Made by a program: the position numbers and the translations under genes
In this document: positions 8,248 to 58,897 of the stretch, piece by piece
Position numbering within the stretch: the first letter of the stretch is position 1
How the letters are laid out: each line of letters begins with the position of its first letter
NCBI GenBank assembly: GCA_045106985.1
Contig: JBGCFQ010000011.1
Location: 131,890 to 195,889 of the forward strand
Length of the DNA: 64,000 nt
Direction of reading: 5' to 3'
Source of the DNA: Pseudomonadales bacterium
GTDB lineage: Bacteria; Pseudomonadota; Gammaproteobacteria; Pseudomonadales; JAUIET01
Notes under the pieces: generated by a model
The model's database searches: none
The model's input: only the letters and a program-made list of their open reading frames with translations
Told to the model about the DNA's origin: nothing

Positions 8248-8453
8248 AACGCTGGCAAATCACTGTCAGCGGCAATAAAACAGCCACGCACAGGCTACTA
8301 CTAAGGTCGCCCAGCGACCAAAAAACGAAATATAGTGAGTGTTTACCCCGTGGTCAAATCACTTATTTTCTTTTAGCAAATGAATTATTTCGATATAAAG
8401 CCTCAGTTATAGCAATTTGCTTGGTATTAGCCGCTCGCGCTCTGCGACTGAAA

Positions 8454-9682: not shown

Positions 9683-12499
9683 ATGTTTGAACGAAGCAAA
9701 CTTAGCGCGGCAGTGGCTTCTGCCTTGGCAGTAAGTATATCTGCCGGCACAGCCCAGGCGCAGATGCTCGAAGAAATTATTGTAACGGCTACAAAGCGTG
9801 CAGAAAGCATGCAAGACGTACCTATTTCAATTCAAGCACTGGGCGGCGAAAGCTTGAAAGAGCTTCGCGTAGAGACCTTCGATCGCTACGTAGCTTACTT
9901 ACCCAACGTGGTGAATGCAGGTAACGGACCAGGCAAGAAAGAAATTTACATTCGTGGTACAGCCACAGAGCAATCGTCGGTAACGGTTGGTCCCGCTCAG
10001 GGATCAGCGCCGGGTGTTGCACTCTACTTAGACGAAATGCCTGTTTCCTTCGGCGCACGTAACCTTGATATATACGCTGCTGATTTAGAAAGAATAGAAG
10101 TGTTGGCTGGACCACAAGGCACCTTGTTTGGCGCCAGCTCGCAGTCGGGTACTGTTCGCCTAATTACAAACAAGCCTTCGGTTGAAGGATTTGATGCAGG
10201 TTTTAACTCCAAGTTCTCTAGTACTTCAGGCGGCGGCGAAAGCGCTGCAGCCGATGTCTTTGTTAACATCCCTCTGTCCGATAAGTTGGCTGTGAGAGCA
10301 ACTATATACAGTGACAACCAAGGCGGCTGGATAGACAACGTTCCATCAACCTTTACACCTAGTGGCGCAGTTGTTGACCGCAACAGTCTTGGCTTCGGCC
10401 CCGCGCTCACCGGCGCTGACTCAGTGGCGACCGCTAGAAACGACACCATAGCGTCTGACGATTGGAATGATGCGTCTTATCGCGGTGTTCGTTTAGGCCT
10501 TAAGTACGATATCAATGATGATTGGGATATCTTGGTCCAACACACTGAACAAACCCTTGATGTTGATGGCAGCTTCCTGTCTGATCCAAGCTTGGGTGGC
10601 GATTCGAACGCAGCGAAGTTCATTCCTGAAACAAACAAAGATGAGTTTGGCCTAACGACGTGGACTTTAAATGGTCGTGTAGCAAACCTTGACATCGTTT
10701 ATACCGGGGGATTCCTCGACAGAGACGTAAGCAATAACATCGATTACACCCACTACAACAATGGTGGTGGTTACATAACTTATTACCTGTGTAGCGGTAA
10801 CGTTTACGATGCGACAGACGTTAACAACTGTTTCGACCCGACTAAGCAGTATGCTGAAACAACAACTAATGAGAGAACCACGCACGAATTCAGAATTTCA
10901 ACAGATCCTGATAACCGTTGGAGAGCAATTGGTGGCCTTTACTACAACGATGTTGAAACCACGCACATTGGTGAATTCCAATATCTATCAACTAACGCAG
11001 CTTTTGAAGAGCAAACCAACAGCTATTACAACGATAATCGTGGCGACGGCTTTTTATTGGGCAACACTACCATTCCCAATACTTCGGGCACGGTATCAGT
11101 AGGCCCAAGAAGTCCCGCTACCGTCTTCTTCAACGATTTCACTCGAACAGAAGATGAATTTGCAATTTTTGGTGAGTTTGCATTCGATTTCACTGACACA
11201 GTAAGTGCACGCGTAAGTGGCCGCTATTACAAGCTGACATCAGAATTGGAAGGCGCTTCGAACTTCTCGTTTGGCTGTCGATACGGCGCGGGCGGTTTCG
11301 GCAACTCTGACATAACAGCTGACGGCCGTTGCGATGGAACTGGTTTCAGCAACGACGTAACACAGCGACTGGAATTGTTAGGTCAAGCAAACGCGACTGG
11401 CGATCTAGCTCCAATACTGGCGGCAACGTCCCCGAACGGCGGACGTGATTTCTTCCGTGGTGGCGGTGGCGCATTCCCAGGCTCTAACCAGGCGATTGCT
11501 GATGCAATCACTAGTGGCGGACTGGACATCAGTAACATCGAAACTGATGGCTCTACTGAAGAAGATGACATCATCGTAAAGGCCACTATCGACTGGCGTG
11601 TAACCGACGACATCATGTTGTTTGGTACATATTCTGAAGGCTACCGACCTGCCACTCAGAACCGTAATGCTGGCAGACTAGCCGCCAACCAGACTGGTGT
11701 TTATCTCGGTTACAGAGTACCTACAGTGGCACTGACTGACACATTGACCAACTTTGAATTTGGCATGAAAGGTGAATTTCTTGAAGGCGCTCTTCGCTTG
11801 AACGCGACCCTGTTCTTCTCAGAAATTGATAACCTGCAGGTGTCACGCTTCGACCCATCAAACGTAGCGTTCTTGGTATTCATGGAGAACATTGGCGACG
11901 CAGAGATCACTGGTCTTGATGCTGACTTCCAGTGGGCTGCCACTGAAAACCTGACCATCACCGGTGCTTTTAGCATTCTGGATACTGAGTTGACTCGCTT
12001 AAACCCACAGCTTGATGGCGTAGCGGTTCCGGTTGGTAGCGAGCTGCCACTAAGTTCTGACTTCTCTGGCAACATACGCGCTCGATACGACTTTCCACTA
12101 ACCGCGCTTGGCGGTGACGGCTATGTTTCTGTTGGTGTTAACTATAAGGGCGACAGTGCTGCGGGGATCGTAGGAAGTGCTGCATTCCTTGAAGATACGT
12201 TGCTGTTAGCAACAGGTCGAAGCTCAGGACTGGAAATCCAGAACGAAGGTGGCAATTTTGGTACTGTTGACCTTTCAACGGGTGGCTTACCATCCAACTC
12301 GCGTTACGTGAACCCTGCGTCTACTACAATTAACCTCTCCGCCGGTGTCAACAAAGATTCCTGGACAGCTGAATTGTTCGTAGACAATGTTGGTGACGAG
12401 GAAGCTACCTTTGTACAAACTGCTGGTAAGTTCACGCCTGAGGTAACTAATCAGCGACCACGCACAGTTGGCTTACGTGTTTCATACGACTTTGAATAA
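9683..12499 (+). CDS. TonB-dependent outer-membrane receptor
   Basis: 938 aa. Signal peptide (…SAGTAQA/QM), plug-domain motif EEIIVTATKRAESMQDVPISIQAL and a C-terminal beta-barrel ending RTVGLRVSYDFE. Confidence 0.9.
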   Translation: MFERSKLSAAVASALAVSISAGTAQAQMLEEIIVTATKRAESMQDVPISIQALGGESLKELRVETFDRYVAYLPNVVNAGNGPGKKEIYIRGTATEQSSVTVGPAQGSAPGVALYLDEMPVSFGARNLDIYAADLERIEVLAGPQGTLFGASSQSGTVRLITNKPSVEGFDAGFNSKFSSTSGGGESAAADVFVNIPLSDKLAVRATIYSDNQGGWIDNVPSTFTPSGAVVDRNSLGFGPALTGADSVATARNDTIASDDWNDASYRGVRLGLKYDINDDWDILVQHTEQTLDVDGSFLSDPSLGGDSNAAKFIPETNKDEFGLTTWTLNGRVANLDIVYTGGFLDRDVSNNIDYTHYNNGGGYITYYLCSGNVYDATDVNNCFDPTKQYAETTTNERTTHEFRISTDPDNRWRAIGGLYYNDVETTHIGEFQYLSTNAAFEEQTNSYYNDNRGDGFLLGNTTIPNTSGTVSVGPRSPATVFFNDFTRTEDEFAIFGEFAFDFTDTVSARVSGRYYKLTSELEGASNFSFGCRYGAGGFGNSDITADGRCDGTGFSNDVTQRLELLGQANATGDLAPILAATSPNGGRDFFRGGGGAFPGSNQAIADAITSGGLDISNIETDGSTEEDDIIVKATIDWRVTDDIMLFGTYSEGYRPATQNRNAGRLAANQTGVYLGYRVPTVALTDTLTNFEFGMKGEFLEGALRLNATLFFSEIDNLQVSRFDPSNVAFLVFMENIGDAEITGLDADFQWAATENLTITGAFSILDTELTRLNPQLDGVAVPVGSELPLSSDFSGNIRARYDFPLTALGGDGYVSVGVNYKGDSAAGIVGSAAFLEDTLLLATGRSSGLEIQNEGGNFGTVDLSTGGLPSNSRYVNPASTTINLSAGVNKDSWTAELFVDNVGDEEATFVQTAGKFTPEVTNQRPRTVGLRVSYDFE

Positions 12500-12582
12500 A
12501 AACTGAGTTGTAGGATACTAGGGAGAGGACAGGTTCCGCTCTCTAGTCAACATGCCAGACTCTGGTAAGTAAATACAAGAAA

Positions 12583-12607
12583 GGCGAGCTTCGGGCTCGT
12601 CTTTTTT
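12583..12607 (+). terminator. rho-independent terminator after the TonB-dependent receptor
   Basis: GGCGAGC-ttcgg-GCTCGTC forms a 7-bp stem with one G-U pair. It is followed by TTTTTT at 12602-12607. Confidence 0.7.
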
Positions 12608-12641
12608 GCTTTAGCTTATACCTTATTACCACTCCTACTCG

Positions 12642-14675: not shown

Positions 14676-14710
14676 GCGACCCACATGCGCGCCTTGATAA
14701 GAATAGAATC

Positions 14711-25244: not shown

Positions 25245-26726
25245 TTACACCCTTATCTCATTATGCGCCGCTGACCGTCCTGCTTGGCGGCCAAAAAATG
25301 TGGCGTCTCCAATACTCATTCCACTGGCGTAGCCTGCAGCACAGCGCGGTAAACCTGCGGAATTACGCCCGGCGGCGTACAGCCCCGATATTGTATTTCC
25401 TTCGACACTCAATACTTCACCAGTTGGCAAAGTGTCCAGCCCGCCAAAGGTCATTACTGCAAAATAACCTCCAGCACCTAAGGACAATTCAAATGCGGCG
25501 TAAGGTGGTTCATCTAGAGCATGCACGTATTTTTCTGCTTTGTGGAACGCTGGATCTTCGCCGTGCTCGGCATAGCGATTGTAAAAGCTCAGCGTATTAG
25601 CTAAGGCACCCTGAGGGATTTTGAGCTCTTGCTCCAACTCTTCAACTGTCTCACCGGTACCAGCGACCGGATAACCTCCTTGAGGCGGCCGTTCCAGCAC
25701 ATCAAAATAGCGGCTATCAATTATCAGATAGTAACGCTGTTCGTGACGATCGAGTATCGCACTGCCCAATCGGCCGTGATATACGTCTTCGTTAATAAAG
25801 CGTTGGCCGTTGCCATCAACAATAATCGAGTTAAGGAATTGTTTCGGTGGGTAATACGGCGTGCATATAAACCCTTCATGCATATTGATCGCCGCACCAC
25901 CGGCGCCCATTCCTATACGTATTCCGGCGCCCGTGTCGTTAGCGTTTCCGTTCGGGTAATTGCCCAGCGCCAAGCGCGGCGCGTATTTAGCTACCATAGG
26001 CTCGTTCATTATGAAGCCACCGCCGCATAGAACCACACCACAGCGCGCCTTGAAGCAACACTCTGTGCCATTAATTCGCACGACCAAACCAACTACTCGG
26101 CCCTGTTCTGAGATAGCGGTAAGCGCTCGTGCATCGCACACAATATCAACGCCTTTGTCCTTCGCACTGCGAATCAAATTTTCCATAAGCGGTATACCGC
26201 CATGGTCGCCCTTGATTAAAGGCTTGTGGCCGCGCGGCGCTGCTTTCGATGCCGCAGAATAAGGCCAGGCTTCTTCATTGCCTGATATCATCAAGCCCGC
26301 ATAGTTTGGCGTATTGGTATGCTTGCCAGCGTAATATTCAGCCTTAAATTCAATTCCTTGAGAGATTAGCCAATCATAGTGCTCCAGACTATGGTCGCAA
26401 TACAAACGCACCTTAGCCTTATCTGCATTAGGCCCAGAGGCCTCCAGCAAATACTTGTGCATTTCTTCTATATCATCGTCAAAACCGCAGGCTTTCTGGG
26501 TAGGCGTTCCACCACCCATATAAATCAACCCGCCGGCCATTGCAGTAGACCCGCCGGCATCGCTGGCGGCCTCTAGTACAATCACCTTGGCACCCGCATC
26601 GGCAGCCTCGATTGCAGCACTTATTCCAGCGCCGCCGCCGCCAAGAATTAGCACATCACATTTGGCATGCCACTCTTGTACATCTGCTGCAGCCAAAGGC
26701 TTATCCGAGAGAGATTTCTCACTCAT
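25245..26726 (-). CDS. FAD-dependent oxidoreductase (FAD_binding_2 type; 3-ketosteroid-delta1-dehydrogenase/fumarate-reductase-flavoprotein-like)
   Basis: 493 aa. Motifs: DVLILGGGGAGISAAIEAADAGAKVIVLE ... GLYAAGR. Its stop lies 3 nt before the start of the TauD-like gene. Confidence 0.75.
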   Translation of the reverse strand: MSEKSLSDKPLAAADVQEWHAKCDVLILGGGGAGISAAIEAADAGAKVIVLEAASDAGGSTAMAGGLIYMGGGTPTQKACGFDDDIEEMHKYLLEASGPNADKAKVRLYCDHSLEHYDWLISQGIEFKAEYYAGKHTNTPNYAGLMISGNEEAWPYSAASKAAPRGHKPLIKGDHGGIPLMENLIRSAKDKGVDIVCDARALTAISEQGRVVGLVVRINGTECCFKARCGVVLCGGGFIMNEPMVAKYAPRLALGNYPNGNANDTGAGIRIGMGAGGAAINMHEGFICTPYYPPKQFLNSIIVDGNGQRFINEDVYHGRLGSAILDRHEQRYYLIIDSRYFDVLERPPQGGYPVAGTGETVEELEQELKIPQGALANTLSFYNRYAEHGEDPAFHKAEKYVHALDEPPYAAFELSLGAGGYFAVMTFGGLDTLPTGEVLSVEGNTISGLYAAGRNSAGLPRCAAGYASGMSIGDATFFGRQAGRSAAHNEIRV

Positions 26727-32761: not shown

Positions 32762-33235
32762 ATGATTCCAATCACAAAACGCCCCTTAGACTTAGCGTTG
32801 ATTGCGTTCTTTTCTATATCGGTATGCTACGGCTTACTATTCAGTTTGCCGGAAGGTTTGGGTGTCCCTGTGTCCGCCGACAGTCCTTGGCCTCCATTGC
32901 AGGCGCTGCATAGTTGGGCGGTAGCCGAGGAGCCTGCTCATTTAGACCCGCCACCCAATCTAATCGCCGCCACTTTGTTTGACGGGCTTTTCCAATCGCC
33001 AGCTCTACTGTTTGTGATGTTCGGGTTAATCAAACAGCGGGCCTGGTTGCGACCTCTCGGTCTGTTCTATGCCGGTGCAGCAATAACCAATATGTTTTTC
33101 TATTTCGTGCAGACCTTTCTTGGGCCGCATCCTCCACCCAATACTTTTTACTATCTATTGTTTAATTTACCTTGGCTAATTGCGCCGATGGCTCTCGGTG
33201 TACGCGTGCTGGTGTCAAAAGATCTTGTGACTTAA
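32762..33235 (+). CDS. EXPERA-domain (TMEM97/sigma-2 receptor/EBP-like, DUF2781) membrane protein
   Basis: 157 aa with 4 predicted TM helices. By eye it aligns to human TMEM97: DPPPNLIAATLFDGLFQSPALLF against [21 protein letters not shown], and LIKQRAWLRPLGLFYAGAAITNM against LKGSCKWIRTPAIIYSVHTMTT. Confidence 0.55.
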   Translation: MIPITKRPLDLALIAFFSISVCYGLLFSLPEGLGVPVSADSPWPPLQALHSWAVAEEPAHLDPPPNLIAATLFDGLFQSPALLFVMFGLIKQRAWLRPLGLFYAGAAITNMFFYFVQTFLGPHPPPNTFYYLLFNLPWLIAPMALGVRVLVSKDLVT

Positions 33236-35841: not shown

Positions 35842-37071
35842 TTAAGTAGGCGCCAGTATGTTCTGGCCGCCCCTTCCGAGAAAGCACCAAGCCAAGGCAA
35901 ATACAGCGGCCAGCAGAACATAGCTGCCAACAATCAAGACAGAATTAGGAGGAGCCAGATAGGCAAGATAAGCGATCAATATCAATATCCCCAGGCGCCG
36001 AGCCCATGCTGTAAAAGCTGGCTCTTTGCGCTCTCCCGCTTCAAGAACACAGCTCGCATCCAACAACACTAAAACGATGAAGACTAAACCTGCAAACCGG
36101 TCCATCCAGGTCGCTGTTAAAAAGGCGAAAATATAATAACTGCCCCACACATACATTGCTGCAAGCGCCGCTAAAGAATACTGTTTAGCAAAACCAGTGC
36201 ATTGGGGGTCATACTTAGCCGGTGTTTCAGGCAGGTCTATCGCTGGTAAGTCATCAGGCCGCCACCCGGTTCTAGCCGTCAATACACTCAGTTTGCGTGC
36301 CACTCCTTTTGTGGCGAACATGTCCTGCAACATGCCCTGAAAAATATGCAGGTTCGCGCGTAGCGGATTCCAACTGTGCAGTGGTTTGCGAATGCCGAAC
36401 TCAACAGGCAGTTCTTTGCGCTCATCTTCAAAGGTACCGAACCATTTATCCCACAAGATAAAAACACCACCATAATTGCGATCAAGATAAGTAACATTAC
36501 GCGCATGGTGTACGCGGTGGTTCGACGGGCTAACGAACACGTGATCAAACCAACCCAGCCTATCTATGTGGCGCGTGTGCACCCAGAACTGATACAGCAA
36601 ATTAACTGACGCAACAGTAAAAAACATCTCGCCGGGTACACCCATTAGAAAACAAGGAATAAAGAACAGCCAGGAGTAGAAGAACGACATACTGGTTTGT
36701 CGCAGTGCGGTGGTCAGGTTGAACTCTTCGCTCTGATGGTGAGCTACGTGTGCTCCCCAGAACAACTGTCGCTCATGACTTAGGCGATGGAACCAGTAGT
36801 AAAGGAAATCGTACGCTATAAAGGTAACGACCCAGGCCAATGGGTCGGCCACCGATATCGTGAGCAGTCCGTAGCGGTCGCCAATGGTTAGAAGCACTAA
36901 GGCGCCCAGGTCGAAAATAACCAATTTGGACCCGGTACTTAAAATCCCCAGGCTCAGGCTACTGACACTGTCATTCAGACGATAATATCCAGTACCCTGT
37001 CTGCGGTCCCACCAAAGTTCCAGAAAAATAAACAGCGCAAAGAACGGTCCAGCGTAAGCAATTAAGCTCAT
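35842..37071 (-). CDS. fatty-acid-hydroxylase-superfamily membrane protein, alkylglycerol monooxygenase (AGMO/TMEM195)-like, with an extra C-terminal 4-TM region
   Basis: 409 aa. FHRLSHERQLFWGAHVAHHQSEEFNLTTALRQ resembles the AGMO-subfamily HHSSE-YNLSTALRQ motif, and HRVHH follows later. Its start overlaps the upstream stop (ATGA, 37068-37071). Confidence 0.65.
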   Translation of the reverse strand: MSLIAYAGPFFALFIFLELWWDRRQGTGYYRLNDSVSSLSLGILSTGSKLVIFDLGALVLLTIGDRYGLLTISVADPLAWVVTFIAYDFLYYWFHRLSHERQLFWGAHVAHHQSEEFNLTTALRQTSMSFFYSWLFFIPCFLMGVPGEMFFTVASVNLLYQFWVHTRHIDRLGWFDHVFVSPSNHRVHHARNVTYLDRNYGGVFILWDKWFGTFEDERKELPVEFGIRKPLHSWNPLRANLHIFQGMLQDMFATKGVARKLSVLTARTGWRPDDLPAIDLPETPAKYDPQCTGFAKQYSLAALAAMYVWGSYYIFAFLTATWMDRFAGLVFIVLVLLDASCVLEAGERKEPAFTAWARRLGILILIAYLAYLAPPNSVLIVGSYVLLAAVFALAWCFLGRGGQNILAPT

Positions 37072-38846
37072 GTTCTTGTTTTTGCCTCTCTGTTTAACCT
37101 GAATAAAGTGCCTGGACGTGCGCCAGTATCAGTATCATCTATAAAAGTGGCTTGCCCGCCGACCATCGTCATCTTGTAACCGCTCGCTCGCTGCATTAAT
37201 CGAGGAGCACCAGAAGGTAAGTCGTTAATAACCCGAGGCGCCTTCATACATAGCTTGGGCAAATCTATAACGTTCAGATCAGCACGCTTACCCTTTTCGA
37301 TCGTACCGCGATCACTTAAGCCATAGAGAGTAGACGGGTCCTGGGTCATCATTTTCACGACCAGCTCAAGGGGCAGCTTCATACCGCGATCGCGATCGCG
37401 TACCCAGTGCTGGAGCATAAAGCTGGGGTAGCTGGCATCACAAATAACATTAACATGCGCTCCTCCATCTGATGATCCTATAACTGTACTGCTGTTCTGC
37501 AATAACTGTTCAGTGGCTCGAAAGTCTCCACCTTTATAGCCAGACATGAACACTTTCAGAAAACCAGGGTTACCATTTTCCGGGTCTGAGTCCAACGTTG
37601 CTTCACAGAGGCTGTCGTAAATGGCGGTATCAGCATTCTCGCCGGTACGTTCCATCCGATGTGCGAGAGAAGCACTTGGCTCTGGTTCAAACACCGGCAC
37701 ATTGCCCCAGGCAAAAGTGCAGTCCAGGCTAGACATTAATATCATACGAGCGTTCAACAACATGGGAGCGGTCGTTGGCTCAGCAATAATTTTGGCCCTG
37801 CGTGCTGGCGTACACAACTCCTTTATTCGCTCAATAAGGGGCAAGTGCGCCACTTCGATATAACTTGGTCGATCAGCAAATGGATTGAAAGTGTCCCAGC
37901 TCATTAACAAACCCCCGCCACCGGGGGAAATAGAGGGACAGAGCCGTGCGCCTTGAGCATTCGCCTTTTCGGTTTCCTCTAAAACAAGATGGTACATTTC
38001 GGGGTTAACGTGATTCTGGCCCGTTAGAAACGCAATTGCGCAACCTGTTTCCAAACTGAGTTGACGATACAATTCCAATTCTCGTAGCGGCGCATCTGGG
38101 TCCTCACCCATTAAGCCGGCTGGCACCACTTGCACCAAACCACTTCCGGCTCGTTTTACCGCGTGAAGTATTTCGACTAATTCTCCGGCTTCTGCAAAAG
38201 TACCTGGTACTGGTTCGCCTGTGACGGATGTGTGCATTGGTATTCTATTGGTAGAGAAAGACAATGCCCCGGCCTCAACCGCTTCGCCCGCCAAATCAGC
38301 CATTGTCGCTATTTGTTTAGCCGTTGCCGGCGCATTTACATCCGCGTCATCACCAAACACATAGGCTCGCAAAGCACCGTGTGGAATCTGCGCTGCGATA
38401 TTAATAGCGCGGTTATCGCGGTCCAATGCATCAAGATATTCGGGAAAAGTTTCCCAGGACCATTTTATGCCGTCGGCTAAAGCTGAACCGGGAATATCCT
38501 CAACACCTTCCATCAAATCAACAAGAAACTGGTGCGAATCAGGCCGAACCGGTGCAAAGCCAACACCGCAGTTGCCCATAATGGCGGTCGTTACTCCGTG
38601 GTAGGCTGAGGGAGCCAACAAATTATCCCACGTGGCCTGGCCGTCGTAATGCGTATGCACATCCACAAAACCAGGAGTGGTCAGCTCACCTTGTGCGTCA
38701 ATTGTCTTGCTGGCGGTTACATTGCTTGGCGCTTGCCCATCGAATATCTCGGCAATCAGACCGTCTTGTATTGCAAGATCTGCCGGCCTTGCTTTAGCTC
38801 CAGTACCATCTACTAAATTGCAATTCTTTATCAGCTTGTCAAACAT
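37068..38846 (-). CDS. amidohydrolase, N-acyl-D-amino-acid deacylase (D-aminoacylase)-family
   Basis: 592 aa. MFDKLIKNCNLVDGTGAKARPADLAIQDGLIAEI...TPGFVDVHTHYDG is the typical D-aminoacylase family N-terminus. Confidence 0.7.
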   Translation of the reverse strand: MFDKLIKNCNLVDGTGAKARPADLAIQDGLIAEIFDGQAPSNVTASKTIDAQGELTTPGFVDVHTHYDGQATWDNLLAPSAYHGVTTAIMGNCGVGFAPVRPDSHQFLVDLMEGVEDIPGSALADGIKWSWETFPEYLDALDRDNRAINIAAQIPHGALRAYVFGDDADVNAPATAKQIATMADLAGEAVEAGALSFSTNRIPMHTSVTGEPVPGTFAEAGELVEILHAVKRAGSGLVQVVPAGLMGEDPDAPLRELELYRQLSLETGCAIAFLTGQNHVNPEMYHLVLEETEKANAQGARLCPSISPGGGGLLMSWDTFNPFADRPSYIEVAHLPLIERIKELCTPARRAKIIAEPTTAPMLLNARMILMSSLDCTFAWGNVPVFEPEPSASLAHRMERTGENADTAIYDSLCEATLDSDPENGNPGFLKVFMSGYKGGDFRATEQLLQNSSTVIGSSDGGAHVNVICDASYPSFMLQHWVRDRDRGMKLPLELVVKMMTQDPSTLYGLSDRGTIEKGKRADLNVIDLPKLCMKAPRVINDLPSGAPRLMQRASGYKMTMVGGQATFIDDTDTGARPGTLFRLNREAKTRT

Positions 38847-38904
38847 TACTCAATCCCTTTGCGAAGTCTGTTGTCATAGTCGAGAGTGTTAGACCATTGT
38901 GCGC

Positions 38905-40107
38905 CTACTCTTGAGGCAACTCTAGCGAGCGTTTCGCTATCAGATTTAGCTGAACCTCAGAGCTACCGCCGGCAATGGTATAGCCTCTGGCATTCATCCA
39001 GTCAGCTGCGCGTTGCGTCTCGTCATAGTATGCGTCTGCATCCCACCTAGTGCCAGAAAGGCCAAGCACGTCCACTAACAATTCCGTTTTTTCCTTTAGG
39101 TTTTCCGTGCCTGCCAGTTTGAAGATAGACGTCATTCGCATATCCAATACCCCAGCCATTCCCTCTTCAAAAGCGCGAGCCTGGGTTAAATCCAGAGCCG
39201 CTTTATTCATCATTTGATCTACCACTCGGGCTCGAAGGTCCGCGTCTTGTAAGCGACCATTATCGTCGACCCCAACATACTCTATTGCGTATTCAAGAAG
39301 CGATTTGGGCGGAGCGGGCATGGTGTCGTCCATAGAGCTCATCATTTTGCGCTCGTGCACAAGCAAAGCCTTGGCGATTGTCCACCCCTGGCCCTCCTCG
39401 CCCACTAGATTGGCTTTGGGCACAACAACATTCTCTAGAAACGAATCGCAGAAATGCGATTCGCCCGTTAGCAAAGGTACTGGTCGAACCGCCACTCCTG
39501 GAGTGTCCATAGGAAACAACACAAAACTTATACCCTGCTGCTTAGCACCTGTGTCGTCTGTACGCACCAAGCAAAACATCCAGTCGGCTTTATCACCGTC
39601 ACTGGTCCAACATTTTTGCCCGTTTACTAGGTAGTGATCTCCTTGGTCCTCGGCCTTGCATCGCAGACTCGCAAGATCGGATCCTGACCCCGGTTCACTG
39701 TACCCCTGGCACCAGCGAATAGATCCATTCACGATATTGGGGATATGCTGCTGTTTCTGCTCCTCGCTGCCAAATTCCAGTAAAGCGGGCCCCAGCATCC
39801 AAATACCATGACCTATCAAGGGGTCGCGGCAATTCAAGCGTTGCATTTCTTTCTTCAAGATTTTGGCTTGTTTTGAATCCAGACCTCCTCCGCCATATTT
39901 GCTGGGCCACTCAGGCACGGTCCACCCGCGTTCAGCCATGCGATCCAGCCATAGCTTTTGATCTTCTGACTTGAAGACAAACTTGCTACCACCCATAACA
40001 TTGTCACTTCGATCAGTAGCCGCAGGGGTACGCATGGATGCTGGGCAGTTGGCTTCTAACCAAGTACGCGTTTCTTCACGAAAGGCGTCGTAATCTATTT
40101 CAGACAT
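38905..40107 (-). CDS. acyl-CoA dehydrogenase family protein (one subunit of an adjacent pair)
   Basis: 400 aa. Motifs: CQGYSEPGSGSDLASL and a C-terminal GGSSEVQLNLIAKR. The expected QxHGGxG region reads LGLSGTRW. Confidence 0.8.
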   Translation of the reverse strand: MSEIDYDAFREETRTWLEANCPASMRTPAATDRSDNVMGGSKFVFKSEDQKLWLDRMAERGWTVPEWPSKYGGGGLDSKQAKILKKEMQRLNCRDPLIGHGIWMLGPALLEFGSEEQKQQHIPNIVNGSIRWCQGYSEPGSGSDLASLRCKAEDQGDHYLVNGQKCWTSDGDKADWMFCLVRTDDTGAKQQGISFVLFPMDTPGVAVRPVPLLTGESHFCDSFLENVVVPKANLVGEEGQGWTIAKALLVHERKMMSSMDDTMPAPPKSLLEYAIEYVGVDDNGRLQDADLRARVVDQMMNKAALDLTQARAFEEGMAGVLDMRMTSIFKLAGTENLKEKTELLVDVLGLSGTRWDADAYYDETQRAADWMNARGYTIAGGSSEVQLNLIAKRSLELPQE

Positions 40108-40154
40108 ATTTCTACTTAATCTCTATGCATTCTAACGAAAAGGTTTTTCTTCGG

Positions 40155-41294
40155 TTAGAAATTGTTCAGTAATGCGAAACGGTTTTTATGAAAACCGCTG
40201 TTGCCTAGCAGTTGCAGCGAAACGCGGCAGCGTTTGAAATACAAACCCACATCAAGTTCATCGGTTACACCAATGCCCCCATGCATTTGCACAGCTTCGT
40301 TTGCAATCAATTGAAAGGTATCGTTGGCACGGCATTTAGCGGTGCTGACGCACGCAGCGGACGTATTGCGTTCTTCGTCAATTGCTGACAAAGCGTCTAC
40401 CACGGCGCTACGAGTTAGCTCTAGCTCAACATACATTTTGGCAGCACGGTGCTGCAGCGCCTGAAAGGAACCTATTTTTGCGCCAAACTGTTCTCGCTCC
40501 TTTAGATACGCAACGGTACGATCAAAAAGATGCTGTGCGCCGCCCAGCATTTCTGCGGCCAGGCAGGCACGAGCACGATCCAGTGCCGCATCTAACGCAG
40601 GAAAGGCATCATCTCTATTCCCCAGCAAAGCACTGTTGGAAACAGCTACGTCACTTAGCTCTATATCCGCATAATCTCGGCTATCAACCAGCTTACTTCT
40701 GTTGCGCTGCAGGCCCTCAACTACTGAGTCGAGTACAAAGAGCGACAAACCATGCTGCTCACCAGCCTCGCCAGATGTACGAGCTAACACAATCACTTTG
40801 TCCGCAGACATACCATCAATCACAAATGCTTTGCAGCCGTTGAGAATATACTGGTCGCCCTCTTGCCGAGCAATAAGCGCTGTCGCCAAGGGTGAATGAT
40901 GGGGACCTTCATCTATTGCTGAAGCGATTATTGACTCGCCAGCCGTAATTGAGGGTAGCAAGGCTTCTTTTTGCTCTTCGTTCCCCGCTAACTCAATCAA
41001 AGAGCCGCTTAGCACAACGCTAGAAAGCATTGGTGTTGCCGTCAACAACTGACCGCATTCTTCAAAAACAGATCCTAAGGCGAGATAGCCAAATGCCAGG
41101 CCGCCATATTGCTCCGGCGCGGTAATGGCCGATAAGCCCAGTTCTGCCATGCGAGCCCACGTCTCAGGATCACAGGCCTGCCTTGTGTCGCTGTCACGCA
41201 ATGCACGGAAATGTTGGGTATTGGCATTATCACGAAGAAAATCACGGGTGCTGTCACGCAGCATTCGTTGTTCTTCGTTAAGAACAAGTGGCAT
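40155..41294 (-). CDS. acyl-CoA dehydrogenase family protein (second subunit of the adjacent pair)
   Basis: 379 aa. VQMHGGIGVTDE is retained, but the C-terminal signature is degenerate (LLGNSGFHKN in place of GxSE(I/V)Q). Confidence 0.8.
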   Translation of the reverse strand: MPLVLNEEQRMLRDSTRDFLRDNANTQHFRALRDSDTRQACDPETWARMAELGLSAITAPEQYGGLAFGYLALGSVFEECGQLLTATPMLSSVVLSGSLIELAGNEEQKEALLPSITAGESIIASAIDEGPHHSPLATALIARQEGDQYILNGCKAFVIDGMSADKVIVLARTSGEAGEQHGLSLFVLDSVVEGLQRNRSKLVDSRDYADIELSDVAVSNSALLGNRDDAFPALDAALDRARACLAAEMLGGAQHLFDRTVAYLKEREQFGAKIGSFQALQHRAAKMYVELELTRSAVVDALSAIDEERNTSAACVSTAKCRANDTFQLIANEAVQMHGGIGVTDELDVGLYFKRCRVSLQLLGNSGFHKNRFALLNNF

Positions 41295-48223: not shown

Positions 48224-48844
48224 CTACTCGGAAATTATTCCCCTCTTGCGCAACTCAGCCAGTAAAACATCTACTTCTTCTTCCAGCGACATGGTCGCGC
48301 TATTTATCACAATCTCTGCGTTGTCGGGTGCCTCATAAGGGTCGTCAATCCCTGTAAAGTTTTTTATTTCACCTGCACGGGCTTTCTTGTATAGACCCTT
48401 TGGGTCACGACTTTCAGCAACGTCTAAAGGCACGTCAACAAACACCTCGATAAACTCCATGCCAGATGCTTCATGCAAAGCACGAACCTGGTCACGATCG
48501 GCGCGATAAGGACTGACAAAACTGGATAACGCAATCACTCCTGTATCAACAAAAAGCTTAGCAATTTCGCCGATGCGTCGAATATTTTCGGTGCGATCTT
48601 CGGCAGTAAATCCAAGATTCTTATTGATCCCTAGTCGAACGTTATCACCGTCCAATCGATAACTAAGACGCCCAGCTTCGTGCAGAACTCCCTCCAGCGC
48701 GACAGCCACTGTACTTTTGCCACTGCCCGACAAGCCTGTGAACCAAATTGTTGCGCCTTTCTGGCCAAGTAGCTTATTGCGATGGTCTCTGGTGATATCA
48801 CCCTCATGCCAAGTAACATTCGTCGCCTTCTGCTTTGCCATCAC
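48224..48844 (-). CDS. cysC: adenylyl-sulfate (APS) kinase
   Basis: 206 aa. Motifs: WFTGLSGSGKST P-loop, LDGDNVR, FVSPYRADR. Confidence 0.9.
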   Translation of the reverse strand: MMAKQKATNVTWHEGDITRDHRNKLLGQKGATIWFTGLSGSGKSTVAVALEGVLHEAGRLSYRLDGDNVRLGINKNLGFTAEDRTENIRRIGEIAKLFVDTGVIALSSFVSPYRADRDQVRALHEASGMEFIEVFVDVPLDVAESRDPKGLYKKARAGEIKNFTGIDDPYEAPDNAEIVINSATMSLEEEVDVLLAELRKRGIISE

Positions 48845-53087: not shown

Positions 53088-53155
53088 AAGAAAACAAAAT
53101 CCCCTCGAAAAACCAAATTCCTGAGGGAAAGATGCGCGTCTATGGCGCATTCAGC

Positions 53156-54018: not shown

Positions 54019-55185
54019 TTACAGCTTGCCTAATAGCGCACCACCAGTAGGAACACCCACACCGGAAGTAACGAGCACGTTATTAATGTTCTTCTTAGGC
54101 TGATTAACAGACGATCCGCGAACCAGTTTGGCAGCTTCAACGATTCCGTTTACCCCATGAATGTAAGCTTCGCTGAGCTGTCCTCCATGAGTGTTGGTCG
54201 GCAAGCGGCCGTCTGCTCGCAGCTCTCCATCGAGCACAAACTGGGGGGCTTTGTATGGCTCACAAAAACCCCAGCTTTCAAGTTGCCACAACACGATAGG
54301 CGTAAAGGCGTCGTAAATGATCGCAGCGTCTATATCATCCGGGGTAAGCCCACTTTGTTTGTAAGCTTCTTTTGCCGCAATATCCATCGACGGGATGGCT
54401 GCAATCTCGGGGCGATAAAAACTGGTCATAGACTCCATATTAGCCGCGGCTGCTTGTCCCACTCCTTTTATAGCGACAGGAGTTTGTTTCAGATCCTTAG
54501 CTCGCTCGGCCGTTGTAACAATCACTGCACTGCCGCCGTCGCTTTCAAGACAACAATCAAGCAGCTTCAGTGGAGACACGATTTTACGGGCCGTGTCGTA
54601 CGTTTCACGGTCAAACGGCTGCTCGTAAAACAACGCCGCTGGATTCTTAGATGCAAATTCGCGCTGAAGGTGGGCAATCTCAAACATTGCGTCCTGACAA
54701 TCTTCGGTTAGATGCATATAGCGCTGCGAATACATCGCCACCCAACTAGCCGGCGTCATCAAGCCATAGGGCGTATACCACCCCCAATGAATAGCGTCCG
54801 CTGTGAGCAATGGGCCAGAAACGCCAGAACTATAACGATGGCCGGATCGTCCATTCAACGATCGATAGCAAACAACGCATTCAGCCATACCGCTGGCAAC
54901 CGCCATAACGGCCTGGTGGATAAGGCCTGTAGCCGCGCCACCGCCATGCGGAACTCGAGAGTAAAAAGTAAGGTCGCCAATGCCGACCGCTCTCGCTAAT
55001 TCAATTTCGTCTGTATTGTCCAGGGTGAAGGTCGTCATACCATCGACATCTGACGGCTTCAGCCCCGCATCATCGAGCGCATCTCGCACTGCCTCGGCCG
55101 CCAGCTGAAGCTCAGAACGCCCCGAATTCTTTGAAAACTCAGTGTTAGCCAGACCTACAATGGCCGATTTATCACAAATACTCAT
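54019..55185 (-). CDS. thiolase-fold lipid-transfer protein (SCP-x/Ltp2-like; candidate retro-aldolase)
   Basis: 388 aa. Thiolase-like fold with a C-terminal NTHGGQLSEAYIHGVNGI. It occupies the position that ltp2 holds after chsH2-chsH1 in M. tuberculosis. Confidence 0.7.
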   Translation of the reverse strand: MSICDKSAIVGLANTEFSKNSGRSELQLAAEAVRDALDDAGLKPSDVDGMTTFTLDNTDEIELARAVGIGDLTFYSRVPHGGGAATGLIHQAVMAVASGMAECVVCYRSLNGRSGHRYSSGVSGPLLTADAIHWGWYTPYGLMTPASWVAMYSQRYMHLTEDCQDAMFEIAHLQREFASKNPAALFYEQPFDRETYDTARKIVSPLKLLDCCLESDGGSAVIVTTAERAKDLKQTPVAIKGVGQAAAANMESMTSFYRPEIAAIPSMDIAAKEAYKQSGLTPDDIDAAIIYDAFTPIVLWQLESWGFCEPYKAPQFVLDGELRADGRLPTNTHGGQLSEAYIHGVNGIVEAAKLVRGSSVNQPKKNINNVLVTSGVGVPTGGALLGKL

Positions 55186-55234
55186 TCAATAACCTCTTGC
55201 TGATTCCGCTGTATGACTGTGCTTATCGCTGCTC

Positions 55235-55654
55235 CTAAGGAAGCGCCACACTCACGGAACCCTCCATATGCATGCCCCAAACGTTGTTTTCGCCCACAAC
55301 ATTCACCTTAACCACATTATTCTCGGCGTCCAGTTCTGTAATTTCACCACTAACACTCATAATCATCCCGGGTACGTTAGGCGCTCCTAATTTTACCTTC
55401 AGCGCTTTCATGACGGCTTCCGGCCCAGACCAATCAGTGACATAGCGAGCCATTAATGCCTGGCTAGTTAAAATATTCATAAAAACGTCGGGTAGCCCCA
55501 TATCTTGAGCCACCTTTGGCACATGATGACAAGGCTCAAAGTCACGCGTCGCCAAAGCGCCGCAACTAATAAGCGAACTGGTTATATCGATATCAAGCTG
55601 AGGTAGCTTGTCGCCGACCTTAACGGCAGCGAAATTCATTGTTTCAAAACTCAT
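55235..55654 (-). CDS. MaoC-like (R)-hydratase hotdog subunit (ChsH1-like)
   Basis: 139 aa, single hotdog fold. Pattern: ATRDFEPCHH. Confidence 0.7.
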   Translation of the reverse strand: MSFETMNFAAVKVGDKLPQLDIDITSSLISCGALATRDFEPCHHVPKVAQDMGLPDVFMNILTSQALMARYVTDWSGPEAVMKALKVKLGAPNVPGMIMSVSGEITELDAENNVVKVNVVGENNVWGMHMEGSVSVALP

Positions 55655-55669
55655 AATCTGGTCACCTAC

Positions 55670-56644
55670 TTAGCCTTCAACCGGATAAAACTGCGGCAAC
55701 ATGGTTTTTGCATCCACCTGTTCTACCTTGCCTTTCACTTTCATGCCTATTTTGACGTCATCGGCATCAATGCCCACCACGTTTGAAATGATGCGTGTGC
55801 CCTCTTGCAGATCAATTACGGCAACAACGAGCGGGTATTTATAACCTGGAAACTTCGGATGATGCATTTCCACAAAGCTGAACACTTCACCGTCTAAGCT
55901 CGACTCAATCGAGTCCCATTCTGTAGACTGGCATTCACCGCACATCGGTCGCGGTGGGTGTCTCAATGTTTGACAACCGCTGCAACGCTGAATAAGAACC
56001 CTGCCCTCATCACAAGCATCCCACCACCAGCCATTATCTTGGCCACGCGGCGATTGCGCCCTAGTCGGAATCTCCAACTCTTCTGAACCGCTAGTCGCAG
56101 CTTTCTCAGGCGCCTCTGGAGGAATGAACTTGAACACCCGGAAACGCTGCGTGCCTATCAGCTCACCATCTTGATTCGTAAACTTGGCTAAGGTCTGCAA
56201 AAAGTAGCCCACACCCCGCCCTGTCGCTTTCTGTTCTGAGATTTCTTCGATGATCGCGTCTTCAAATAGCGCATCTCCGAGCTTCGCTTCAGCAAAATAT
56301 TCCTGGTCAACATTGGTACCCAGCGACCCACTAAAGCCGTGCTTATCAAAAAATGCGACCAAGTTTGAAAGACCGTCGCCGGGGCGCCCTGTAGAGGCCA
56401 CTGCGTAGCCTTCCTGATTCCAGGCATACATCATTGCCGGCGGTGCAACGACTTGCCCTCGGCTGCTGTTAGCGGCCCATTCGCGGTCTGTATAAGCGGG
56501 GTTCTGGTCACCCATCACTTCGGTCCAATGACGAATCATAGCTTCATTAACGGTGTCGTAGGAGCGCTTCGGTTCGGGGTGCAACGGAGTGCCAACAAAG
56601 GTCCGTAGCTCCTCCTCAAACGCTTGTCGTTCTTCAGGAGTCAT
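55670..56644 (-). CDS. MaoC N-terminal hotdog domain fused to a DUF35 Zn-ribbon/OB-fold domain (ChsH2-like)
   Basis: 324 aa. The N-terminal half is hotdog (MIRHWTEVMGDQNPAYTD). The C-terminal half has CSGCQTLRHPPRPMCGECQSTEW followed by an OB fold, which is the DUF35 pattern. Confidence 0.75.
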   Translation of the reverse strand: MTPEERQAFEEELRTFVGTPLHPEPKRSYDTVNEAMIRHWTEVMGDQNPAYTDREWAANSSRGQVVAPPAMMYAWNQEGYAVASTGRPGDGLSNLVAFFDKHGFSGSLGTNVDQEYFAEAKLGDALFEDAIIEEISEQKATGRGVGYFLQTLAKFTNQDGELIGTQRFRVFKFIPPEAPEKAATSGSEELEIPTRAQSPRGQDNGWWWDACDEGRVLIQRCSGCQTLRHPPRPMCGECQSTEWDSIESSLDGEVFSFVEMHHPKFPGYKYPLVVAVIDLQEGTRIISNVVGIDADDVKIGMKVKGKVEQVDAKTMLPQFYPVEG

Positions 56645-56818
56645 TGTTAAAACTTCCAGTGGTTAAATGGTAGATCTGGTTTAAATGTGCGGCCGCATGC
56701 TAAATGATGGGTGCAACTAAATAGCTTAGGGCGAAGGATAAACTAGGCGGGTTTAGGTTTCCATGAAGATACCGACACCCGAATCGCTCGATCGGCAGTA
56801 AACTGTATATTCAACTCG

Positions 56819-58897
56819 CTAAAAGCTGCCTTCTATCTGAAATTCAAATACAGTGCCGTATGCACGATCACGATCCTCAACAAATTCTAACTCGCCCTCT
56901 CTGGAGCCGGTAAAGACCGAACGGGTTAATTGATCTGTGTCGGCGATAAGATTTCTAGCCAGAAAGGTAGCCTTTAGACCGAAGACATTTTTGTGTTCAA
57001 TGAACAAACGCAATTCTCCGCGAGTTTGCGCCACATGAAGGATTTGCTTGCGCCTATAGGTATCAGATTTATTTAGAATTCTATGATTCAAACCCCAAGC
57101 CCACTCAGTAGCCTCTATATCATGACGCAATTCCACAAAGAGATAACTTATGGTGTCACCGTTAATTCGTCGCTGTTGATTCGTTAGTGGGTCATCCAGC
57201 ACACTGCGTTGCAGGCTTAGATCAATGGTGACTTGGGCACCAGACCAACCGAGCGCATCAAGATAGCTGGTCGACACCCATTGAGTGCCATAGCGTGTCG
57301 CTTTGTCTAAATTACCAACGGCCTCTTCGCCATTAGCCGTAGGAATGTACTCTACTATATCGTCTATGCTTTCACCCCAAAAACGCCAAGACAGGTTCCC
57401 ATGAGCACCAAACCCTTGCTCTAGCTTGAGTTCAAGCTGCCATGTTTGCGGAGGAACGAGCTGCGGATTACCAGCCGCTGAGTTCTGCTCATCAAGATTC
57501 ACTGACGAGATAAAGTCAAAGAAGTCGAGCTGCCCCACTTCCCTGGAAAGTTTCGCACTGACAGTGGTCTCGGAGCCGAACGCCTTGCTGGCACTGAGAA
57601 ACCCCTTTGGCCTGGTGAATTCCCGACTAAGCCCCAAAAGGCCCGATTGCTGAATCTGAGAAAATTCTCCACCCAAAGACAGCTGAAAATTGACAGCACT
57701 GATTGTCCGACCGTAGGTCAACATCGACTCAAATCGGTACTCTTCAACCTTTGAGCTGCCATTGTTCAAAGTTGACTCAAGCAATGGGCTGCCATTTTCA
57801 CTTTGCAACAAGCGAGACTCAGCATCAACGAAATTGTAAACCCCCTCTAAGGTTAACTGCCAACTCGCCAATTCTTTCGTCAACCAACTGTATTCGCCCC
57901 TCAAAATCGTTTCACCAATGTCTGAATCACGAAGAAACTGCTGCTTATTCAGCTCTGCGTCCAGAAGACTGCGTACCACGGTTACATCAGACAACGATTC
58001 ATTTTCTATGCGTTGATAGGCTATTAGTTTCAATCGTCCCTGCCCTGCATCAAACTCATAATCAGCGCTAAGTTCGCCAACCCTTTTAGGTAGGTCAATG
58101 TCCAGAAAACGATTGCGCGGCGGCTCAGTCGAGAGCAGTCGCCGAAACGAATTTTCATCATCGTCTTTGCGTTGACGTTCGTAAGACAACGATAGGTTGC
58201 CGATATTGCCAGTGGGCGGGTGCCAACTCAACAAAACGGACCCGCCGGGCTTATCTGAGTTATAGGTCGCAAATTCGTTGCGCTCCTCTGTTATTACGCC
58301 AACGCTGTCAGTAACTCGCTCTAGCCCCCAGTGCCCATAGCGGTCTTGCCTATTGTTGAGATTAGCCTTCCAGGTTAGAGAATTGTGCTTGCCACTCAAT
58401 GACAAATCGAAGCGGTACCATACTGGGTCGATACGAGCGCGTTGGTGTGTTCGCCATAACCACGTCCCGGTAAATGCTTGTTCGTCGATAATAACGTCGG
58501 CAACATCTCCATTTAAGCCAGGAATCCCCAGGCTGGCGCCATCCCGAATAACGATCATTCGAACAGAGGACGCTGGAACACGGCCTAACACAGTCAGCGC
58601 ACTGTCTCGCTTACCAGACACTCGCGCGCCATTAATTAGAACGTTACTGCTGGCTTGTCCCAGTCCGCGAACATTGTCGAGCTCTCGAGCAAAGAAACCC
58701 GGGACTAAATCGATCATTTCCTTGGCCGTACGTGGTGCAAACTTACTAAAGAAAGCGGCTGAGAACTCAGTGTGTTCTACCCCTGACGACTTCGATTGCC
58801 CACTCAACTCATCAGCAAGCCCTGCGTTGGGCAGCGTTGCCAGCAGGAGAGCCGCAATGAGAATTTTAGATGAGAGCTGAGACATTACATTGAACAA
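56819..58897 (-). CDS. TonB-dependent outer-membrane receptor
   Basis: 692 aa. Signal peptide, plug region (LGQASSNVLINGARVSGK) and a terminal aromatic residue (…FQIEGSF). Confidence 0.85.
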   Translation of the reverse strand: MFNVMSQLSSKILIAALLLATLPNAGLADELSGQSKSSGVEHTEFSAAFFSKFAPRTAKEMIDLVPGFFARELDNVRGLGQASSNVLINGARVSGKRDSALTVLGRVPASSVRMIVIRDGASLGIPGLNGDVADVIIDEQAFTGTWLWRTHQRARIDPVWYRFDLSLSGKHNSLTWKANLNNRQDRYGHWGLERVTDSVGVITEERNEFATYNSDKPGGSVLLSWHPPTGNIGNLSLSYERQRKDDDENSFRRLLSTEPPRNRFLDIDLPKRVGELSADYEFDAGQGRLKLIAYQRIENESLSDVTVVRSLLDAELNKQQFLRDSDIGETILRGEYSWLTKELASWQLTLEGVYNFVDAESRLLQSENGSPLLESTLNNGSSKVEEYRFESMLTYGRTISAVNFQLSLGGEFSQIQQSGLLGLSREFTRPKGFLSASKAFGSETTVSAKLSREVGQLDFFDFISSVNLDEQNSAAGNPQLVPPQTWQLELKLEQGFGAHGNLSWRFWGESIDDIVEYIPTANGEEAVGNLDKATRYGTQWVSTSYLDALGWSGAQVTIDLSLQRSVLDDPLTNQQRRINGDTISYLFVELRHDIEATEWAWGLNHRILNKSDTYRRKQILHVAQTRGELRLFIEHKNVFGLKATFLARNLIADTDQLTRSVFTGSREGELEFVEDRDRAYGTVFEFQIEGSF

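Follow-up and report, generated by a model that had tools for sequence, protein, structure and literature searches.

A probable ChsH1-ChsH2-Ltp2-type hydratase and retro-aldolase for steroid side chains encoded in a marine Pseudomonadales genome

Enzymes that shorten the side chain of steroids by hydration and retro-aldol cleavage have been described in three systems that most resemble the locus studied here, a trio of chsH2-, chsH1- and ltp2-like genes in a 64,000-nucleotide stretch of DNA from a Pseudomonadales bacterium (GenBank assembly GCA_045106985.1, contig JBGCFQ010000011.1, positions 131,890 to 195,889; this whole stretch is called the window, and positions are counted from its first nucleotide). 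The first is the actinobacterial igr set ChsH1-ChsH2-Ltp2, represented by Rv3542c-Rv3540c of Mycobacterium tuberculosis and by proteins of Thermomonospora curvata (structures 6OK1, 4W78 and 4WNB). Its Asp/His dyad is carried by ChsH1 only, ChsH2 having a tyrosine in place of the histidine (PMC11321319). The T. curvata ChsH2 (TcChsH2) has a canonical C4 zinc finger (Cys-x2-Cys-x10-Cys-x2-Cys), and mutagenesis of the aldolase TcLtp2 assigned the role of catalytic base to Tyr294, the first residue of a YDHF motif, and that of catalytic acid to Tyr344; His296 contributes to the oxyanion hole, and its replacement cost 14-fold in catalytic efficiency (PMC12329534). The second system is ORF40-44 of Comamonas testosteroni TA441 (ChsE1E2, ChsH1H2 and Ltp2), in which gene knock-outs established the functions of dehydrogenase, hydratase and aldolase; its Ltp2 shares 63% identity with the M. 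tuberculosis protein (PMC12502768). The third is Shy/Sal of Proteobacteria that degrade bile acids (CtShy-CtSal; 9MYR and 8VWR), in which Shy is homomeric and has a C3H1 zinc finger, and Sal acts on C5 side chains with Tyr302 and Cys304 in a YDCY motif and a glutamine at the position of the second tyrosine (PMC12329534).

The trio lies on the minus strand at 56644..54019 and belongs to a run of five head-to-tail open reading frames (ORFs), namely an outer-membrane protein gene, the chsH2-, chsH1- and ltp2-like genes, and a gene for a short-chain dehydrogenase/reductase (SDR), separated by 174, 15, 49 and 47 nt (Table 1). With a probability of about 0.7, we read the trio as encoding a ChsH1-ChsH2 hydratase and an Ltp2-DUF35 retro-aldolase that would together cleave the terminal propionyl unit from a steroid side chain. 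A preliminary description, made from the sequence alone, had proposed the order MaoC-N+DUF35 fusion, MaoC protein and thiolase-fold protein, and had likened it to chsH2-chsH1-ltp2 of M. tuberculosis. Both points are borne out: the ORFs and their Pfam domains are as described, and gene order, domain architecture, catalytic residues and scores against solved structures agree with the actinobacterial set. The window proteins share with that set the ChsH1 dyad, the His-to-Tyr exchange of ChsH2, the C4 finger, both aldolase tyrosines and the lack of the thiolase cysteines. They differ in a YDAF motif in place of YDHF, in having neither a ChsE1/E2 pair nor cyp125 alongside, in their Gram-negative marine host, and in having the SDR as a conserved downstream partner.

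The ChsH2-like protein matches the Pfam families FAS1_DH_region (MaoC-N-like; E = 9.9e-14), zf-ChsH2 (6.9e-12) and OB_ChsH2_C (2.2e-14), and among solved structures ChsH2(DUF35) 6OK1_B (3.1e-35) and the ChsH2 MaoC structures 4W78/4WNB (3.7e-19). Its motif GDQNPAY places a tyrosine where the catalytic histidine sits, similar to GDRNPIY in M. tuberculosis ChsH2, and its zinc finger (Cys221-x2-Cys224-x10-Cys235-x2-Cys238) is of the TcChsH2 type. The MaoC-N hot-dog domain would accordingly be non-catalytic and bind the rings of the substrate, while the C-terminal DUF35 part, a zinc ribbon followed by an OB fold, would dock the aldolase. The ChsH1-like protein matches the 127-aa ChsH1 chains 4W78_B/4WNB_B at 7e-22 and, weakly, Pfam MaoC_dehydratas (2.4e-4). 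Its Asp38 and His43 correspond in the alignment to Asp29 and His34 in the M. tuberculosis chain, and the dyad is thus retained. A HadAB-type fatty-acid-synthase dehydratase was also considered for this small protein and rejected, HadB reaching 40 bits against a cut-off of 203.

In a HMMER comparison with solved structures, the Ltp2-like protein matches T. curvata Ltp2 (6OK1_A) at 3.2e-134 and 451 bits, as against 136 bits for CtSal (9MYR_A), 72-103 bits for true thiolases and 67 bits for BbsB. It contains the Pfam domain Thiolase_C_1 and passes the NCBIfam model PRK07855 ('lipid-transfer protein') with 565 bits at a cut-off of 469. In the alignment, Tyr291 and Tyr341 occupy the positions of the catalytic Tyr294 and Tyr344 in TcLtp2, and both tyrosines are invariant among all full-length homologues at the 80 loci, one genome per species, that were fetched with Ltp2 and form our comparison set (loci are designated by L numbers below). 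The thiolase nucleophile (the cysteine of 7YVY and 6ESQ) is replaced by a glycine within GGGAATG, and the acid/base cysteine in the HDCF motif of thiolase 6ESQ by the alanine of YDAF. As the preliminary description had expected of an aldolase, the canonical thiolase residues are therefore not retained.

These residues also bear on a reading in which the protein would be a true DUF35-assisted thiolase of the BbsAB or SCP2 type, with the SDR serving as 3-hydroxyacyl-CoA dehydrogenase in ordinary beta-oxidation. The thiolase fold, the DUF35 partner and weak NCBIfam matches to BbsA and BbsB would fit such an enzyme, as would the position of the SDR gene directly downstream; MaoC hydratases yield (R)-3-hydroxyacyl-CoA, the substrate of SDR-type dehydrogenases in MFE-2-type systems. 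However, the BbsA and BbsB matches reach only 35 bits (cut-off 250) and 82 bits (cut-off 750), respectively, the structure scores given above rank Ltp2 before true thiolases and BbsB, and the reading is effectively refuted by the missing catalytic cysteines, which makes it extremely improbable.

In Shy/Sal, too, a MaoC+DUF35 hydratase docks a thiolase-fold retro-aldolase that lacks the nucleophilic cysteine, and the preliminary description had named the shy/sal genes as the proteobacterial analogues. The window system is specifically of the Ltp2 type. Judged by the 451 against 136 bits, by YDAF and a second tyrosine rather than YDCY, by a C4 rather than a C3H1 finger, and by its separate ChsH1-like subunit, it falls outside the Shy/Sal family and would act on C3 side chains.

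From these features we infer a scheme that covers the assembly of a complex, the reaction catalysed and a steroid as substrate. A heteromeric MaoC enoyl-CoA hydratase would be formed by the ChsH2-like and ChsH1-like proteins, with the Asp/His dyad provided by the ChsH1-like subunit and the inactive, remodelled hot-dog domain of the ChsH2-like subunit holding the bulky rings. The enzyme would hydrate a ring-attached enoyl-CoA with an alpha-methyl branch, for which 3-oxo-pregna-4,17(20)-diene-20-carboxyl-CoA serves as model substrate. Since the resulting beta-hydroxyl is tertiary, it could not be oxidised for thiolysis, and retro-aldol cleavage would take its place. With the DUF35 tail of the ChsH2-like protein and its C4 zinc finger as docking site, the Ltp2-like protein would cleave the C-C bond with Tyr291 as base and Tyr341 as acid, giving propionyl-CoA and a 17-keto steroid.

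The gene order ChsH2-ChsH1-Ltp2 occurs in 65 of the 65 loci at which all three genes were detected; at the other 15 of the 80, the locus was ended by a contig edge or a gene was missed by the 50%-coverage filter. The order is shared by Cellvibrionales, Myxococcota, Binatia and Mycobacterium. Aldolase identity to the window protein is 77-92% in marine Pseudomonadales/Cellvibrionales metagenome-assembled genomes (MAGs; Spongiibacteraceae, Halieaceae, Halioglobus), 71% in a Porticoccaceae MAG, 58-68% in Myxococcota and Binatia, and 53-54% in Mycobacterium. A pair of acyl-CoA dehydrogenase (ACAD) genes lies beside the trio or is interleaved with it in about half of the loci having all three genes. 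Like the window trio, the TA441 module comes from a proteobacterium, is of the Ltp2 type and has a ChsH2 in which MaoC and DUF35 are fused; it removes the propionyl unit of a C3 side chain. In TA441, in the Vibrio and Novosphingobium plasmids and in Myxococcota, however, two ACAD genes are interleaved (ChsH2-ACAD-ChsH1-Ltp2-ACAD or similar), whereas the window trio stands alone. The plasmid homologues of Vibrio alfacsensis and Novosphingobium ES2-1 lie within igr-like clusters, and an Oceanicoccus sp. carries an orthologous trio together with a CoA ligase gene, an ACAD pair, two TetR genes and, 3 kb away, a Rieske/KshA_C oxygenase gene. Cholesterol-degrading Cellvibrionales of the BD1-7 clade and Halieaceae have been isolated and grow on cholesterol, and steroid-pathway hits of marine metagenomes were also assigned to these two groups (Holert et al., PMC5790920).

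Some relatives carry further genes beside the trio. In seven Cellvibrionales MAGs (L008, L010, L012, L013, L015, L032 and L089; at about 12.0-13.6 kb within each locus), the trio and SDR genes are followed by a stand-alone DUF35 gene and a second Ltp2 paralogue, which is 55-57% identical and has YDAF and both tyrosines. This arrangement suggests two aldolase systems in tandem. A GMC oxidoreductase gene follows the second Ltp2 gene in L089/L015 and in L012, and L089 adds genes for its small-subunit-like partner, a ThuA-like protein and a further SDR.

Several observations weigh against the assignment to steroids. The neighbourhood of the trio consists of housekeeping genes (tRNAs, pgsA, uvrC, DNA polymerase II) rather than a catabolic island; neither in the window nor in its six nearest relatives does an ACAD pair, CoA ligase or regulator gene adjoin the trio; and the window as a whole contains no KshA-like gene, no acyl-CoA ligase gene and no trio-adjoining ACAD pair of the ChsE1/E2 type. 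A cognate ACAD pair may be encoded elsewhere in the genome. In addition, the oxyanion-hole residue His296 of TcLtp2 (YDHF) is an alanine (YDAF) in the window aldolase and its whole sub-clade, unlike in the steroid-associated proteobacterial plasmid homologues. YDAF is shared by the window protein and 79 homologues, which come from Cellvibrionales, Myxococcota and Binatia and include the second paralogue of some loci; YDHF is kept at the six Mycobacterium loci, in one Myxococcota paralogue and in the V. alfacsensis and Novosphingobium ES2-1 plasmid homologues. With YDAF instead of YDHF, the sub-clade could differ in substrate or mechanism. His296 is not essential, given that the TcLtp2 variant lost only 14-fold in efficiency, and we treat YDAF as a trait of the sub-clade that leaves its members within the Ltp2 family.

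The main rival explanation keeps the hydratase/retro-aldolase chemistry but assigns it to a non-steroid substrate, from which a branched C3 unit would be removed. Such a substrate could be another bulky alicyclic or isoprenoid acyl-CoA, for example of a hopanoid, a diterpenoid or another compound with a ring-attached 2-methylpropionyl side chain. The exchange of His296 for alanine throughout the sub-clade would fit this explanation, because steroid-linked actinobacterial and plasmid homologues keep the histidine, and so would the missing KshA-like, CoA ligase and ChsE1/E2 genes and the housekeeping surroundings. On the other hand, the Oceanicoccus trio, 3 kb from a KshA-type oxygenase gene and accompanied by a CoA ligase gene and an ACAD pair, belongs to the same sub-clade; Cellvibrionales isolates degrade cholesterol (PMC5790920); the 53-54% identity to mycobacterial Ltp2 is in a range similar to the 63% that the genetically validated TA441 Ltp2 shows against M. 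tuberculosis; and a homologue of a steroid ring-A dehydrogenase is encoded in the same window. We therefore consider a non-steroid substrate unlikely. The conserved trio, the TA441 module, the Oceanicoccus context and the cholesterol-degrading Cellvibrionales together favour a steroid as the most likely substrate and mean that the finding was to be expected: the trio is an ordinary further case of a known system, and sterol degradation had been linked to its lineage before.

The ring-A dehydrogenase homologue is a 493-aa flavoprotein (25245..26726, minus strand) that matches 3-ketosteroid-Δ4(5α)-dehydrogenase (PDB 4AT0) at 4.5e-105 and KstD structures at about 1e-31. Its region, at about 28 kb from the trio, has the appearance of a second locus of the steroid type. 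Downstream of the flavoprotein gene, after a 3-nt gap, lies a gene for a TauD/TfdA-family dioxygenase (24390-25241, minus strand), and genes for a fatty-acid-hydroxylase-family and an EthD-like protein diverge from it. The preliminary description had found no ring-degradation genes in the window; this stands for genes of the kshA and hsaC type but overlooks the flavoprotein. A Pfam scan of nearly all non-overlapping window ORFs of at least 150 aa found no Rieske or extradiol-dioxygenase domain, and tblastn searches of the window with KshA-like, CoA ligase, TetR, OYE, SnoaL, luciferase-like and alpha/beta hydrolase queries from related clusters gave no match. Likewise, none of the best 120 of 3033 matches to the Oceanicoccus KshA-type protein lies on the contigs of the window or its relatives.

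An ACAD pair is encoded elsewhere in the window (38905..41294). It is only 26-31% identical to the trio-adjacent pairs, but 43-47% identical, and orthologous, to a second pair located directly downstream of the V. alfacsensis plasmid module. The 400-aa member has its best matches among solved structures in ChsE4 (4X28_A) and Tcur3483. These similarities link the pair with ACADs of the steroid type. The two genes stand in an apparent operon (35842-41294, minus strand) encoding the 379-aa and 400-aa ACADs, a 592-aa amidohydrolase and a 409-aa protein of the fatty-acid hydroxylase/sterol-desaturase family. Across the window, nine SDR-family proteins, two proteins of the fatty-acid-hydroxylase/sterol-desaturase family and one SnoaL-like protein are encoded. 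Amid these lipid- and sterol-type enzymes, a 157-aa EXPERA/EBP protein (emopamil-binding protein, sterol isomerase superfamily; E = 4.3e-8) is encoded at 32762-33235 on the plus strand; such a protein is unusual for bacteria.

The SDR that the preliminary description had placed after the triad is present and matches Pfam adh_short_C2 at 4.7e-55. In many Cellvibrionales loci, the trio or a second MaoC gene is succeeded by an orthologue of this SDR (65-90% identity), and on this comparative evidence its association with the trio is real. The protein could be assigned to its general class only, as a conserved accessory oxidoreductase of the trio. A more specific enzyme name was sought and rejected: no NCBIfam cut-off was reached (7-alpha-HSDH, 187 bits against 350), and the best matches among solved structures were generic SDRs at about 1e-38.

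The gene upstream of the trio had been described as encoding a 692-aa TonB-dependent receptor. That length corresponds to the ORF as opened at the TTG; we place the start at the ATG at 58885 because the database copy has 688 aa. The protein itself has no Pfam or NCBIfam match at 1e-3 and no match to a barrel model, and its best trace of a plug is a Plug hit with E = 0.018 and 16 bits, under the gathering score of 23.9. About 150 relatives were found, and those at 35-42% identity (Hyphomonadaceae, Sphingomonadales) mostly have a Pfam Plug hit, some of them also a TonB_dep_Rec barrel hit. An AlphaFold model built from a 52-sequence alignment (pLDDT 89.2, pTM 0.83) contains more than 22 DSSP segments, and the 50 Foldseek matches listed are without exception TonB-dependent transporters with a probability of 1.00, the best being 8THE (E = 1.2e-20, TM about 0.55, about 12% identity). 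Given a confident model and matches to TonB-dependent transporters alone, the predicted fold is that of this class, and the receptor assignment can be kept for the fold and for the Pfam hits of the relatives, though not for any family match of the protein's own. Like TonB-dependent transporters, the protein has a predicted plug and beta-barrel, a signal peptide and a C-terminal Phe. It differs from them in its about 12% identity to solved members (TM about 0.5), its sub-threshold Plug hit, the lack of a conserved TonB box, and the location of its family in an alphaproteobacterial cell-division/cell-wall cluster. No TonB box is shared across the 52 aligned members, in which the 10-40 residues before the conserved plug start (F.P.TA.DM..PGF) are variable; a degenerate box is possible.

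The genomic contexts of this family allowed us to weigh a further explanation, in which the outer-membrane protein, the trio and the SDR would form one uptake-plus-catabolism operon and the receptor would import a bulky hydrophobic substrate, possibly a steroid or steroid glycoside. The preliminary description had already suggested uptake of a substrate of this kind. The five genes lie on the same strand with no terminator predicted in the 174-nt gap, and the outer-membrane gene adjoins the trio in 7/7 members of the window's clade. A role of such receptors in taking up steroids has been proposed for sphingomonads (PMC8399759), and in one Halioglobus MAG a different receptor gene ends a divergent ACAD-ACAD-CoA-ligase operon by the trio. 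That operon (L016, 1070-7609, minus strand) encodes two ACADs, an acyl-CoA ligase and a 767-aa Plug-domain TonB-dependent receptor unrelated to the outer-membrane protein of the window; no orthologue of this receptor was detected at the other trio loci compared, including L023 with its orthologous CoA ligase gene.

Against a joint operon stands, first, the distribution of the outer-membrane gene. Family members at 37-42% identity lie at housekeeping sites away from any trio: between ddl and murB, in a division/cell-wall cluster, in Henriciella and on two other Alphaproteobacteria-type contigs, and amid unrelated housekeeping genes in Sphingopyxis and Allosphingosinicella. The homologue loci compared were of the Hyphomonadaceae type (L081-L083 and L086) and from Sphingomonadales (L084 and L087); the window has murB about 4 kb upstream of its own outer-membrane gene. 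Among the Ltp2-fetched loci, only 5/80 have the outer-membrane gene, and these five, with L085 and the window, are all of the window's own small clade. In Sphingopyxis and the window's clade, the outer-membrane gene is accompanied by a His_Phos_1 gene; conservation of this pairing was considered and rejected because the two phosphatase genes are not detectably orthologous.

Second, the adjacency is interrupted within the clade itself. In four sister MAGs (L001-L004; Table 1), a gene for a 630-aa, membrane-anchored GH123-like glycoside hydrolase stands between the outer-membrane gene and chsH2, beginning in L002 one base past the outer-membrane stop codon. In a fifth sister genome, L030, this gene is deleted, with a 3' remnant left at 8257-8542; the window and L085 hold no trace of it. 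Moreover, the outer-membrane protein is 53-61% identical across L001-L004, L030 and L085, as against 78-92% for the trio and SDR, and thus evolves much faster than the adjoining trio or was replaced.

Third, a non-coding block about 90-130 nt 5' of the chsH2-like start (invariant columns C.GT.....C.T.G.AA...TATCCTT in seven aligned related loci) is conserved independently of the preceding gene, be it the outer-membrane or the GH123-like gene. This block is a candidate promoter or operator of the trio itself. A scan of the 174-nt gap called no sigma-70-like or terminator-like site, totals being not above those of shuffles, and no riboswitch or other RNA was found upstream of the outer-membrane gene, only three tRNAs. 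Finally, genes for TonB-dependent receptors are common in these genomes, a second one lying in the same window (9683..12499), so that chance adjacency to the trio is plausible. Taken together with the lack of a conserved TonB box, these observations make a joint uptake operon doubtful, and the uptake proposal of the preliminary description finds little to recommend it: the position of the outer-membrane gene beside the trio is most likely a lineage-specific accident, and the protein is probably not tied functionally to the trio. Slightly less probable still is a more far-reaching proposal, namely that the family of the 688-aa protein, lacking a TonB box and standing outside Pfam, was recruited in one Spongiibacteraceae-like clade as an importer of sterols or steroid glycosides (compare the GH123-like gene) and constitutes, with the YDAF sub-clade of Ltp2, a distinct Gram-negative marine route by which sterol side chains are removed. 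To our knowledge, the passage of steroids across the Gram-negative outer membrane is poorly understood; on the evidence presented here, the neighbouring outer-membrane protein is not a good candidate for a steroid importer.

Table 1. Features of the trio locus and of related loci. Positions refer to the window, except for the GH123-like gene, for which they refer to the locus named.
Feature	Position	Strand	Basis
Plug-and-barrel outer-membrane protein (predicted), 688 aa	56819..58885	(-)	AlphaFold/Foldseek; ORF opens at 58897 (TTG, 692 aa)
Conserved non-coding block, candidate promoter/operator of the trio	56734..56774	(-)	Seven-locus alignment
ChsH2-like MaoC-N+DUF35 fusion, 324 aa	55670..56644	(-)	Pfam, PDB 6OK1_B/4W78/4WNB
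ChsH1-like putative catalytic MaoC hot-dog subunit, 139 aa	55235..55654	(-)	PDB ChsH1, Asp/His dyad
Ltp2-like thiolase-fold putative retro-aldolase, 388 aa, YDAF sub-clade	54019..55185	(-)	PDB 6OK1_A, NCBIfam PRK07855
Classical SDR oxidoreductase, 271 aa	53156..53971	(-)	Pfam adh_short_C2
GH123-like gene of four sister MAGs	L001 2305-4194; L002 6553-8445; L003 6554-8443; L004 6638-8482

Upstream of the five genes lie tRNA-Leu, tRNA-Cys and tRNA-Gly, followed by pgsA, uvrC, a LuxR-type response regulator gene and murB. Downstream, thioesterase and Fe-alcohol dehydrogenase genes are convergent on the SDR gene, with a terminator-like hairpin (53131-53151) between the SDR and thioesterase genes. 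The G+C level is about 0.50 over the whole region. Farther away, the segment 267-8247 (minus strand) holds a cluster typical of corrinoid-dependent quaternary-amine demethylation, with genes for an MttB-family methyltransferase (743 bits), a B12-binding corrinoid protein, a RACo-type reductive activator, a pterin-binding methyltransferase and MTHFR-like proteins. The second TonB-dependent receptor of the window is a canonical 938-aa protein whose gene is followed by those of a 677-aa TPR-sulfotransferase and a second, 212-aa sulfotransferase (9683-15349, plus strand). An APS kinase is encoded elsewhere in the window (48224-48844, minus strand).

In summary, the trio adds a well-supported ChsH1-ChsH2-Ltp2 set to the uncultured marine Pseudomonadales/Cellvibrionales. 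Modestly new are the large Ltp2 sub-clade of Cellvibrionales, Myxococcota and Binatia that naturally lacks the oxyanion-hole histidine, and the detachment of the trio from its usual ACAD partners in the window's clade. Recognition of the set could aid the annotation of MAGs, in which these genes are now named 'lipid-transfer protein', 'OB-fold protein' and 'acetyl-CoA acetyltransferase'. The finding fits earlier evidence that this group of bacteria degrades sterols in the sea and in sponges.

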